A DNA stretch of 64,000 nucleotides from a virus, in the IMG/VR virus record IMGVR_UViG_3300025598_000020, one strand, 5' to 3'. The notes beneath the pieces are model-generated. The model searched no databases and was not told the origin of the DNA. It saw only the letters and a program-made list of their open reading frames with translations. Both the position numbers and the translations under genes were made by a program. Below are positions 1,109-12,485 of the stretch, piece after piece. Numbering within the stretch: position 1 is the first letter of the stretch; each line of letters opens with the position of its first letter.

Positions 1109-1184
1109 TGGTCTCCGTAGAGGGATTTGAACCCCCACTACCTGCTCCCAAAGCAGGGGCGCTACCAGGTTACGCTATACGGAG
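1109..1184 (-). tRNA. tRNA-Pro(TGG)
   Basis: Cloverleaf; loop TT-TGG-GA; CCA end. Confidence 0.93.
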
Positions 1185-1189
1185 AAAAA

Positions 1190-1255
1190 TGGAGCAGTCA
1201 TTACGATTCCCACGTAAATGTTAGGTGGACCCTAACACGGTTACTATCCGACTGC
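1190..1255 (-). ncRNA. D-armless tRNA-like RNA with Gly-type acceptor end
   Basis: GCAGTCG/TGACTGC acceptor stem plus TCCA; anticodon-like arm with TCC; 5-bp T-like arm; no D stem. Confidence 0.65.
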
Positions 1256-1262
1256 AAAAAGA

Positions 1263-1336
1263 TGGTGCCCCATGAGAGAATCGAACTCCCGTACCCGGAT
1301 TACAAAACCGGTGTAATGCCATTATACTAATAGGGC
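1263..1336 (-). tRNA. tRNA-Thr(TGT)
   Basis: Cloverleaf; loop TT-TGT-AA; CCA end. Confidence 0.92.
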
Positions 1337-3827: not shown

Positions 3828-3856
3828 ATTATACACCTATTTAGAGTACTTGTCAA
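3828..3856 (-). promoter_or_regulatory. sigma70-type promoter
   Basis: Consensus TTGACA-N17-TATAAT upstream of 3807. Confidence 0.8.
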
Positions 3857-4316
3857 CCTCCACACCACACTGTTGTAAAAATACAACACCTTGGTCATTT
3901 CGGTAATCTTCTTTATAGAAAACCTTACGAATTCCTGCGGTAAATATCTGTTTTGCACAGTCAATACATGGTGCATGTGTCAGAAACATTGTGGAACCAT
4001 CACCTGATTCACTGGATTTAGCCAGTTTAGCAATGGCATTTGCCTCTGCATGGATGACTTCTGGTTTGGTTGTTAACTTATAGTTTATCCACTGATTTGC
4101 TTGTTTTGGAAGCAATTGTTCACTATAATCACCATCATCACAATAGTGTTTAGTTTCACATTCATTAGTCCAACCTGGCGGCATGCCATTATAACCAATA
4201 GAAATGATTCTATCATCTTTTACAATGATAGAACCAACTTTCAATCGGACGGCAGAACTTAGTCCGGCTGTCCGACTTGCAATGTCCATGAAATAATCAA
4301 TAAACTTCTGCTTCAT
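3837..4316 (-). CDS. cd: dCMP deaminase
   Basis: GYNG, HAEANAI and PCIDC zinc motifs. Confidence 0.92.
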   Translation of the reverse strand: MKQKFIDYFMDIASRTAGLSSAVRLKVGSIIVKDDRIISIGYNGMPPGWTNECETKHYCDDGDYSEQLLPKQANQWINYKLTTKPEVIHAEANAIAKLAKSSESGDGSTMFLTHAPCIDCAKQIFTAGIRKVFYKEDYRNDQGVVFLQQCGVEVDKYSK

Positions 4317-4537: not shown

Positions 4538-4987
4538 TTAGATACCTCCTAATACTTTAATATATGCTTCTGCATGGCGTTTTTCAACTTTAGCCAATGC
4601 GGCAAAACGTTTTTCTGCCTTAGCCAAGATAGCGGCAAATTGTGCGGCATGTTCTTTAGACTCAGCAATCTGCTCTTGGATTTCTTTCTGTGCTTCGGTC
4701 TTACCCTCTGCAACTGCAATGGCTTCAAACTGAGGATACATTGTAGTAAACTCATATGTTTCACCATCAATAGCAAGTTGTAAGCATTCCTTAGTGGTTC
4801 GCTTACCGACCAACAATTCCAAATGACCCCATGCATGTTTGATTTCTTGATCGGCAGTTTCTTCAAAATGTTTTGCAACATCTTCAAAGCCTTCTGCACG
4901 AGCCAACTTGGCAAAGTAACGATATTTAATATGTGCAATTGACTCACCGGCCAATGCACTTTCTAGGTTTTTCAAAGTAACTGACAT
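4538..4987 (-). CDS. Rubrerythrin-family di-iron protein
   Basis: NLESALAGES, EIKHA, GETYEFTTMY and EKRHA motifs. Confidence 0.9.
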   Translation of the reverse strand: MSVTLKNLESALAGESIAHIKYRYFAKLARAEGFEDVAKHFEETADQEIKHAWGHLELLVGKRTTKECLQLAIDGETYEFTTMYPQFEAIAVAEGKTEAQKEIQEQIAESKEHAAQFAAILAKAEKRFAALAKVEKRHAEAYIKVLGGI

Positions 4988-5618: not shown

Positions 5619-5687
5619 TTAGCGGAACTTTTCTGGATAATTCAGGCGTTCCCATTCCTCATCGGTAACAGGCCACCAATTATTCAT
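5619..5687 (-). CDS. 22-aa microprotein MNNWWPVTDEEWERLNYPEKFR (not in ORF track)
   Basis: ATG overlaps the hsp20 stop (ATGAATAA), suggesting translational coupling. Confidence 0.5.
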   Translation of the reverse strand: MNNWWPVTDEEWERLNYPEKFR

Positions 5688-6120
5688 CTTTAGATTTGAT
5701 ACCAATTTTCTTGATAGCATCCTGTGTTTTGACGATATTTTCCAACCAAACTTTTAACATACCGTTGGCTAATTCCGCATCTTTGATTTCAATCTTATCA
5801 TTGATTGTAAAGACACGTTCAAAAGCACGGTTTGCAATTCCCTTGTATAGGAAATGTTCGTCATCTGCATCATCTTTTGCAAGACCCTTGATGACAAGTT
5901 TGTTGCCGTCCATTGTGATTTCAATATCAGACTTAGCAAAACCAGCAACTGCCATTTCAATGACGTACTTGTTTTCTTTTACTTGTTTGATATTGTATGG
6001 GGGATAACCCATTGATTTGGCTGTATGCTCTGTTGCTCTGCGTAGAGCATCCATAGTTTCTTCAAAGCCAATGAATTGACCGAACAGGTCTTTGCCGAAG
6101 ACATCTTTTAGATATGTCAT
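5680..6120 (-). CDS. hsp20: Small heat-shock protein Hsp20/IbpA-like
   Basis: YPPYNI, EMAVAGF, YKGIANRAFERVF and NGMLKV motifs. Confidence 0.93.
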   Translation of the reverse strand: MTYLKDVFGKDLFGQFIGFEETMDALRRATEHTAKSMGYPPYNIKQVKENKYVIEMAVAGFAKSDIEITMDGNKLVIKGLAKDDADDEHFLYKGIANRAFERVFTINDKIEIKDAELANGMLKVWLENIVKTQDAIKKIGIKSKDE

Positions 6121-8063: not shown

Positions 8064-9191
8064 TTAGAACTGTGTGGCTGATAATAACCTGCGTTTAACC
8101 GGAGAAAGACTTTCAGTCAATTTTCTCCATTCATCACAGGATTCAGGAATAGCACAATCTCCTTTTAAACCACCAACTCGAAAATTGATATCTCTGGCAA
8201 AACAATATTCGTTAAATAAAACAACGAATCTTGAAGCATAGAATTCTCTAATTTTGATACCACCAGAATCTTCAACAATATCTTGTTGTGTTGTTAATGG
8301 GCCTTTACCATTAAATTTACGGCGTTCGGTAAAAACATATTTAATAAAGTCGTCAAAAGAACAAATCAATTTATTATTTTTTTGAATTTTATAAAATCTT
8401 TCACCAAATACTTTTTGGAATAAAACCAAACCTACAAATAAAAATCCTTTAATGTCTGTTTCAGTCAAATGCTCTTTCAATGAATGTAGAGAAATCTTAA
8501 CGTATTCTTTATTTGGTGTATCATCAAGACGCAAAGCTTCAATTAAGTTACCATATGATTCAAAGGTATGTGTAGCAACATAATCATTGCGGTTCGTATT
8601 GGCAATAGAAATGCCAAAAGGTTTTACAAACTCATATAAAGCAACTGCATCTGGGTCTTTAGCTCCATAAGCACCCTTAAATTTGTGTTCGGCAACCATG
8701 TTCCAACGGTCAATGTTGTCACTATTATAATTGTCGGATTCTATTTGTTTAATTTTGTCAATGTCAGTTTCACTATGAACTTCTAATGACACTTCAACAT
8801 ATGCATCTTTACCCAAAGTCAGATAACGTTGTGCGGTTCGATGATTGCCTTGGGTCAAAACTAATGTGCCGTCAGGACGTAAGTATGCTTTCATTCCATT
8901 TGCTTTGCCATAACAAAACCCATTATGTTTTTCTAGGTTTTTCATGGCTTTTTCTAAATTCAATTCGTCTGTTCTATTGTAAAAGTCATCACCGTAAAGA
9001 TATTTAACTTGAATTAAACATACAAATTTTGCTCCAGGAACTAAAACATTTGAGGCTTTTAATTCATCATATGTTGGTAAGTTTTGTGAGTACGTATCCA
9101 AAGGAACACTTAATGTGGACCTATAATAACTTAATTTTTTAGGTGTAAGTTTTGGATTTTTATCAACAATATCAATAATTTTATGTAACAT
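8064..9191 (-). CDS. Hypothetical protein with ParB/Srx-like motif (start reassigned to MLHKII)
   Basis: AAAGGAG upstream of ATG at 9191; RPDGTLVLTQGNHR resembles the ParB-like DGxHR motif. Confidence 0.55.
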   Translation of the reverse strand: MLHKIIDIVDKNPKLTPKKLSYYRSTLSVPLDTYSQNLPTYDELKASNVLVPGAKFVCLIQVKYLYGDDFYNRTDELNLEKAMKNLEKHNGFCYGKANGMKAYLRPDGTLVLTQGNHRTAQRYLTLGKDAYVEVSLEVHSETDIDKIKQIESDNYNSDNIDRWNMVAEHKFKGAYGAKDPDAVALYEFVKPFGISIANTNRNDYVATHTFESYGNLIEALRLDDTPNKEYVKISLHSLKEHLTETDIKGFLFVGLVLFQKVFGERFYKIQKNNKLICSFDDFIKYVFTERRKFNGKGPLTTQQDIVEDSGGIKIREFYASRFVVLFNEYCFARDINFRVGGLKGDCAIPESCDEWRKLTESLSPVKRRLLSATQF

Positions 9192-12218: not shown

Positions 12219-12485
12219 TTAAGCAGTCAAAGAAGCACCAGCTGCCAATGCGGTACGAACCAAAGATTTAGTTGGTGTACCAAGACGATAAACATTGATT
12301 TTCTTGCCGTTAACAGTCTTTGTGTTTGTATAAATGCAATGACCTTCTTGACGAAGTTCATCGATACGTGCAGAAACGTTCTTGATTCCGAAACGGCGTT
12401 GTGCAGACTTAACGGTGAAAGTGTTGTAACCTTCAGTTTGCTTCAAGGCGTTAAGAATACGGGTTTTTGCGGATAGATTGCTCAT
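12219..12485 (-). CDS. Small basic winged-helix DNA-binding protein
   Basis: RFGIKNVSARIDELRQEGHCIY HTH-like segment; own TTGACA-N17-TATGAT promoter (12564-12536) and terminator. Confidence 0.65.
   Translation of the reverse strand: MSNLSAKTRILNALKQTEGYNTFTVKSAQRRFGIKNVSARIDELRQEGHCIYTNTKTVNGKKINVYRLGTPTKSLVRTALAAGASLTA

Follow-up and report, generated by a model that had tools for sequence, protein, structure and literature searches.

Within the tRNA cluster of a freshwater T4-like phage we find a 66-nt RNA that appears, from its sequence, to be a descendant of tRNA-Gly from which the D arm and the variable loop have been lost. We give about an even chance to the reading that it is a functional D-arm-less tRNA-Gly descendant serving as an extra-ribosomal glycyl-RNA or tRNA-Gly mimic that is kept off ordinary decoding. 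The window (the whole stretch of 64,000 nt of viral DNA analysed here) also carries phage genes for a gp44 clamp loader, a gp46-like nuclease, a dCMP deaminase and an RNase H-like protein. The RNA, its two neighbours and its parts are as follows.

1263..1336, minus strand: tRNA-Thr(UGU), upstream neighbour, 7 nt away, a spacing typical of the cluster (ARAGORN and Rfam)
1190..1255, minus strand: D-arm-less tRNA-Gly-like RNA, 66 nt (sequence; 91 bits with covariance model R1)
1109..1184, minus strand: tRNA-Pro(UGG), downstream neighbour, 5 nt away (ARAGORN and Rfam)
1249..1255, minus strand: 5' strand of the acceptor stem, GCAGUCG (G1, C2, A3, G4); pairs 1-72, 2-71 and 4-69 invariant
1238..1248, minus strand: 11-nt linker in the place of the D arm, with a conserved AAC at 1240-1242
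1232..1237, minus strand: 5' strand of the anticodon-like stem; compensatory changes in 6/6 pairs
1225..1231, minus strand: loop GGUCCAC, with G32-C38 as closing pair and a probable pentaloop GUCCA holding C35 and C36 (from the 32-38 pairing)
1219..1224, minus strand: 3' strand of the anticodon-like stem; covariation in the 34-sequence alignment
1213..1217, minus strand: 5' strand of the T stem, UUACG; 4/5 pairs covary, G53-C61 invariant
1206..1212, minus strand: T loop UGGGAAU; U54 and A58 kept, the usual U55 C56 replaced
1201..1205, minus strand: 3' strand of the T stem, CGUAA; pairs 49-65 U-A, 50-64 U-A and 51-63 A-U
1194..1200, minus strand: 3' strand of the acceptor stem, 7 bp, the last pair being G-U
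1190..1193, minus strand: discriminator U73 and encoded CCA, invariant in 34/34 sequences

The minus strand of 1190-1255 reads letter for letter as given in a preliminary description made from the sequence alone, and most of the architecture proposed there holds. The three stems do pair, and 34 distinct homologues keep all of them with compensatory changes; the CCA is indeed encoded and the D arm replaced by a linker of 10-11 nt (11 nt in the window); and the T loop lacks UUCG, as had been claimed. The hairpin loop has to be amended in part: its sequence stands, and the size of 7 nt assigned to it probably does not, since positions 32 and 38 always pair and would leave 5 nt. A single U lies between the hairpin and the T stem. 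Several features of a canonical tRNA are retained, namely the 7-bp acceptor stem, the 5-bp T stem with G53-C61 and the discriminator followed by CCA, and the acceptor/T helix comes to 12 bp. As a single sequence the RNA folds only modestly better than its shuffles (z -2.66), so the case rests on its relatives.

As relatives we used 80 contigs of uncultured viruses that carry large tRNA clusters; they were reached via the RNase H-like gene at 231-722. Homologues occupy the equivalent cluster slot in many of them, and in total about 40 sequence variants are present in related uncultured phage contigs. The covariance search of phage relatives that had been suggested at the outset was productive: the family model (R1) recovers one copy in the window (91 bits, E ~1e-20, the next best match being tRNA-Gly(GCC) at 20 bits) and dozens of copies in the relatives. 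For position counts 65 R1 matches were tabulated, and 34 distinct sequences of classes A and B were aligned. In this alignment 97.5% of the stem cells form standard pairs, changes on both sides are seen in 14 of the 18 pairs, and none of 500 shuffles reaches the observed pairing and covariation values; when the 3' partners are slid along, pairing falls to 31-55%. RNAalifold independently arrives at the same three helices, and the divergent class C covaries in its own right.

The pairs that never vary among the 34 sequences are G1-C72, C2-G71, G4-C69 and G53-C61, whereas acceptor pairs 5-7 covary and pair 3-70 is G-C in 23 sequences and A-U in 11 (A-U in the window). Invariant single positions are U73, CCA, C35, C36 and A58-A59-U60 of the T loop, in which position 55 is G in 33/34 and position 56 varies. 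Both A's of the linker motif AAC are invariant and its C is found in 33/34, the rest of the linker being variable in sequence and length. Judged from these comparisons, the structure is under selection. The earlier argument that intact stems speak against decay is therefore strengthened by the compensatory changes, and the situation that would have spoken for decay (a normal tRNA in the relatives, with random decay here) was looked for in them and is not what is seen.

One complete relative is without the element, which is thus dispensable. Two further arrangements were noted: locus L136 carries tandem D-arm-less Gly-like genes at 2465-2602, one of the UCC type and one of the GCC type, and in L158 class A and class B occur at separate sites (8219-8285 and 12394-12459). 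An exact 17-mer has no match in the viral collection, in which a gapped pattern does find matches, and in the GenBank phage collection the 66-nt element has no homologue, matches around the site being confined to the canonical tRNAs. R1 matches neither of the cultured phages S-CREM1 and S-CRM01, a weak negative given that the initial screen returned no candidates at all. In prokaryote genomes, where at least 120 pattern matches were obtained, R1 matches none of the 80 loci scanned, and these 80 loci yield no cellular copy or host clue.

Standard tools largely overlook the element. It is not called in the window by the bacterial model of ARAGORN, and the Rfam tRNA model (RF00005) does not match it, whether the cut-off is the gathering score or E<=10. 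The ARAGORN/ARWEN check proposed in the preliminary description was successful in part: in ARWEN mode class B relatives alone are called, as mitochondrial-type tRNA-Gly(tcc), and the window element and all class A copies are missed. Other tRNA-like genes, full-length at 75 nt and with an ACCA end, are missed by ARAGORN too (L026 5663-5737, L021 5594-5668, L054 1375-1449, L009 7162-7236 and L018 10478-10552), several of them with the anticodon CAU and an unusual T loop, for example GGAUCGUUACC. In many relatives ARAGORN reports a 92-nt 'tRNA-Ile(tat)' after tRNA-Ser(gct) (for example L007 3767-3858 and L008 4208-4299), which is unusual in length and anticodon; the window has a 74-nt unstructured gap (2427-2500) at this place. 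An element of about 75 nt between tRNA-Asn and tRNA-Pro (L014 5304-5377, L060 1164-1238, L062 3939-4013, L075 4720-4794) has paired ends GGAUCG...CGAUCC and no CCA, and is unrelated to the Gly-like family.

In the window, 78 nt separate tRNA-Thr(UGU) from tRNA-Pro(UGG), and the element fills this gap in a minus-strand cluster with 18 tRNAs called by ARAGORN; the order Thr-element-Pro recurs in a subclade of the relatives. Two plus-strand ORFs across the site (982-1224 and 1127-1330) were taken as spurious because they run through tRNA genes. Among the tRNAs, also on the minus strand, lie the RNase H-like gene (231-722) and genes for a dCMP/cytidine deaminase (3837-4316), a rubrerythrin-like protein (4538-4987) and an Hsp20 small heat-shock protein (5680-6120). 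Directly downstream of the element in relatives we find an 81-aa GroES-like ORF and a small conserved protein; since both also occur away from the element, no specific gene link is seen. The gp44 of the window is about 60% identical to cyanomyovirus gp44. Nonetheless, a cyanobacterial host is not supported, because the photosystem genes psbA/psbD (PF00124) are absent from 5 complete or near-complete relatives.

Other parts of the cluster, all on the minus strand, are conserved as well. The 127-nt gap between tRNA-Glu and tRNA-Lys (2039-2165) is 87-95% conserved in diverged relatives and folds with an invariant 17-bp closing helix, and the palindromic loop of its inner hairpin changes yet stays palindromic (GGCC, GCGGCCGC, CUAGCUAG, UUGCAA); here the cluster probably encodes a further stable small RNA. 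The gaps at 1520-1711 (192 nt), 2241-2350 (110 nt) and 2754-2853 (100 nt) are about 80-92% conserved across relatives, much like the tRNAs themselves, and may be further non-coding RNAs or regulatory regions. Between two tRNA-Ser genes lies a 73-nt tRNA-like remnant (2591-2663), present in a few relatives, with a 7-bp acceptor stem and a GGUUCGAAUCC T-loop region. Its T stem is broken and CCA is missing, which gives it the look of a decayed tRNA.

The bacterial glycine identity set has been defined as G1-C72, C2-G71, U73, C35 and C36 (PMC9976931). None of these positions varies among the 34 class A/B sequences or is lost from any other variant found, so that the glycine determinants named in the preliminary description (G1-C72, C2-G71, U73 and an xCC anticodon) agree with the published set. 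Canonical phage tRNA-Gly share the ends GCGG...CCGC-UCCA, some of them with A3-U70 as in the window element, and of the 65 tabulated matches, 46 follow a canonical tRNA-Gly (mostly UCC) at a distance of 5-8 nt. Of 63 loci that carry the element, 56 have a canonical tRNA-Gly(UCC) too; the element therefore adds to the normal gene and does not replace it. The window itself has only tRNA-Gly(GCC) in range; in the close relatives L001-L003, Gly(UCC) stands further along the cluster, and the equivalent spot falls beyond the window start. Among the short units of these clusters that combine a 7-bp acceptor stem with NCCA, only the Gly-like ones are without a D arm. The linker may hold 1-3 bp of a former D stem in some variants, and in some classes 3-4 bp of it are retained; the D arm of a tRNA-Gly ancestor has thus been lost in a graded manner across the family.

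To predict EF-Tu binding we used an additive T-stem model (Table 2 of PMC3239215). Its predictions for all 850 unique canonical tRNAs of the window plus loci L001-L080 follow the known pattern of tight Gly, Ala, Asp and Glu bodies and weak Trp, Val and Thr bodies. Predicted means are -10.24 kcal/mol for canonical phage tRNA-Gly(UCC), -10.57 kcal/mol for tRNA-Gly(GCC) and -9.06 kcal/mol for the elements (-9.2 kcal/mol in the window). Consequently, by a model that was calibrated on cloverleaf tRNAs, the element would bind about 1.2-1.5 kcal/mol more weakly than canonical tRNA-Gly, and the gap to tRNA-Gly(GCC) exceeds the 1.3 kcal/mol that marks an outlier in T-stem binding (PMC3239215).

The preliminary description had pointed to the non-ribosomal tRNA-Gly of Staphylococcus, and the analogy gains support from these values: the same model predicts -9.5 kcal/mol for the Staphylococcus cell-wall tRNA-Gly, so both have a T stem predicted to be weak, that of the element (-9.0 to -9.2) being the weaker of the two. 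In Staphylococcus these RNAs are the FemXAB donors of the pentaglycine bridge and have evolved to avoid translation (PMC3239215). Both are extra RNAs with glycine identity beside normal copies (for the element, the 56/63 loci with Gly(UCC)), and both lack the contacts between D loop and T loop. The element differs in that it is phage-encoded, D-arm-less and probably endowed with a 5-nt loop, and in that its relatives have no Fem-type enzyme (PF02388 and PF13480 are absent from 5 complete or near-complete relatives). The non-proteinogenic tRNAs of Staphylococcus, by comparison, retain the complete cloverleaf and an anticodon loop of 7 nt.

In decoding tRNAs, U33 and a purine at position 37 are near-universal, and the hairpin loop of the family departs from this. 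Complementarity between positions 32 and 38 is never broken (30 sequences have G-C, 3 have U-A, and other classes A-U), and RNAalifold gives the anticodon-like arm 7-8 bp with a 5-nt loop, from which we take the nominal 7-nt anticodon loop to be probably a pentaloop. This is GUCCA in class A (the window included) and in class B, where it is closed by U-A; UACCC in class C, with variants CACCC and UACCU; UUCCC in L029; and UGCCC in the second copy of L136. L037 has a 4-nt loop (GCCA) and L010 a 6-nt loop. The stems are intact with every one of these loops, which have no positions but C35 and C36 in common. We rejected a kissing interaction of the CC loop with the T loop, because T-loop variants without GGA keep the same hairpin loop.

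The main rival to a glycyl mimic, which we regard as rather unlikely, is that the RNA, for all its minimal body, truly decodes as a tRNA-Gly(UCC), for example as a back-up that goes unseen by tRNA-cleaving defences or turnover. NCC stands at the anticodon position in every class, the acceptor/T helix has the 12 bp noted above, and class B passes for a mitochondrial-type tRNA-Gly(tcc) in ARWEN mode. In addition, an engineered D-arm-less tRNA-His ('mini HisT') is accepted by the HisRS, EF-Tu and ribosome of E. coli, with RNA stability (PNPase) as the limiting factor (PMC11551756). The missing D arm is therefore by itself no ground to exclude decoding, and evasion of tRNA-targeting defences has been proposed for phage tRNAs whose anticodon loops are altered (PMC10264068). 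Against this, G33 is invariant in classes A and B and position 37 is C or U in others, so that neither U33 nor purine-37 is conserved; the Watson-Crick pair 32-38, mostly a strong G-C, leaves 5 nt, and natural variants with 4 and 6 nt have intact stems. The mitochondrial-type combination of a 7-nt loop, U33 and purine-37 is accordingly not what the family displays. The T stem is moreover predicted to be too weak for glycine by the margin given above, a decoder would be redundant with the adjacent canonical tRNA-Gly(UCC), and one class has A34. Bacterial Gly decoders are not known to use A34.

Under the reading as an extra-ribosomal glycyl-RNA, the element would be transcribed with the tRNA cluster and excised by the normal tRNA-processing enzymes; such processing is most likely in view of the 5-8 nt spacing, which is like that of tRNAs, and the U at -1. 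Host GlyRS would then probably glycylate it via G1-C72, C2-G71, U73 and CCA together with C35/C36. E. coli GlyRS charges acceptor microhelices too, which would make glycylation of the element more plausible. Without a D-loop/T-loop elbow, with a 5-nt loop and with a T stem that is not tuned for glycine, it should be a poor ligand and largely avoid EF-Tu and the ribosome. The glycyl-RNA could subsequently act off the ribosome, with a Gly-tRNA-using enzyme or a Gly-tRNA-targeting host factor as its partner; FemAB, Acetyltransf_6, L/F transferase and peptidyl-tRNA hydrolase were not found in 5 complete or near-complete relatives. As to what it does there, we only tentatively suggest a minimal glycyl-RNA that imitates charged tRNA-Gly, either as a decoy substrate or inhibitor for host immunity directed against Gly-tRNA-Gly or as a glycine carrier of an undescribed phage pathway. 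Acetyltransferase toxins of the TacT type (GNAT family) acetylate Gly-tRNA-Gly and recognise U73 and G71 (PMC9976931); both are invariant in the element, and a decoy role is therefore possible but speculative.

It might be argued that charging is not needed, and that an uncharged look-alike of tRNA-Gly would suffice to block or divert a tRNA-Gly-recognising host protein, for instance a tRNA-directed defence nuclease. The literature describes tRNA-targeting immunity as widespread, and the element has kept the acceptor end and the CC loop and shed the parts that contact the ribosome. We nevertheless consider this unlikely: the conserved set, encoded CCA included, coincides with the GlyRS determinants, the literature searched on tRNA-targeting immunity offers no tRNA-Gly-specific nuclease, and a decoy against a multiple-turnover enzyme would have to be abundant or to bind tightly. 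It seems very improbable that the element serves the polycistronic tRNA precursor only as a spacer, for processing or structure, and has no role after excision. Its place inside tRNA clusters with tRNA-like spacing would fit, as would the conservation of other inter-tRNA gaps, but a spacer would not need U73-CCA, C35/C36 and G53-C61 unchanged across about 40 variants, and in two loci the element is solitary, with the nearest tRNA called on the same strand 1.9 kb away. Decay of a tRNA-Gly copy after tandem duplication, which the adjoining canonical tRNA-Gly of most relatives and the failure of tRNA finders might suggest, is refuted by the covariation, seen in place of the broken stems and uncompensated substitutions of pseudogenes; the truly decayed remnant of the same cluster (2591-2663) does have a broken T stem and lacks CCA.

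D-arm-less tRNAs are well known from mitochondria (mammalian mt-tRNA-Ser(AGY), nematodes, mites). The element resembles these in having a short connector for the D arm, an extended anticodon stem, a non-canonical T loop and a length of about 60-66 nt. The mitochondrial RNAs are proven decoders with U33, a 7-nt loop and co-adapted partner proteins (PMC7609411, PMC12221289), whereas in the element U33 and R37 are not conserved and 32-38 are paired. The mini HisT mentioned above likewise places a D-arm-less body in a bacterial setting, but this is a man-made RNA of histidine identity whose anticodon loop is canonical. According to a 2024 study all known bacterial tRNAs are cloverleaves (PMC11551756), and phages go unmentioned in a 2020 review of natural tRNAs with non-canonical structure. 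Our literature searches returned D-arm-less tRNAs only for mitochondria and the one engineered case; they returned no phage D-arm-less tRNA, and no natural RNA of this kind described for bacteria or phages. The tRNA cluster of phage T4 also encodes stable RNAs of unknown function, species 1 and 2 (rnaC/rnaD), which are processed together with the tRNAs. Like the element, these are small non-tRNA RNAs in a T4-type tRNA cluster; they are longer (about 120-140 nt), and we know of no glycine identity set in them.

Overall, the family makes clear that phage tRNA clusters contain conserved genes which standard tRNA finders overlook. A D-arm-less and probably chargeable tRNA body would already exist naturally for the bacterial system, and its compact 62-nt scaffold is of interest for the engineering of orthogonal tRNAs. 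For the interplay of phage tRNAs with tRNA-targeting immunity the element provides a testable object, a mimic seemingly built for charging and not for decoding. If the proposed role is true, the element would become the first aminoacyl-RNA without a D arm to be known in nature outside organelles, and would represent an RNA counter-defence or cofactor of a new kind.
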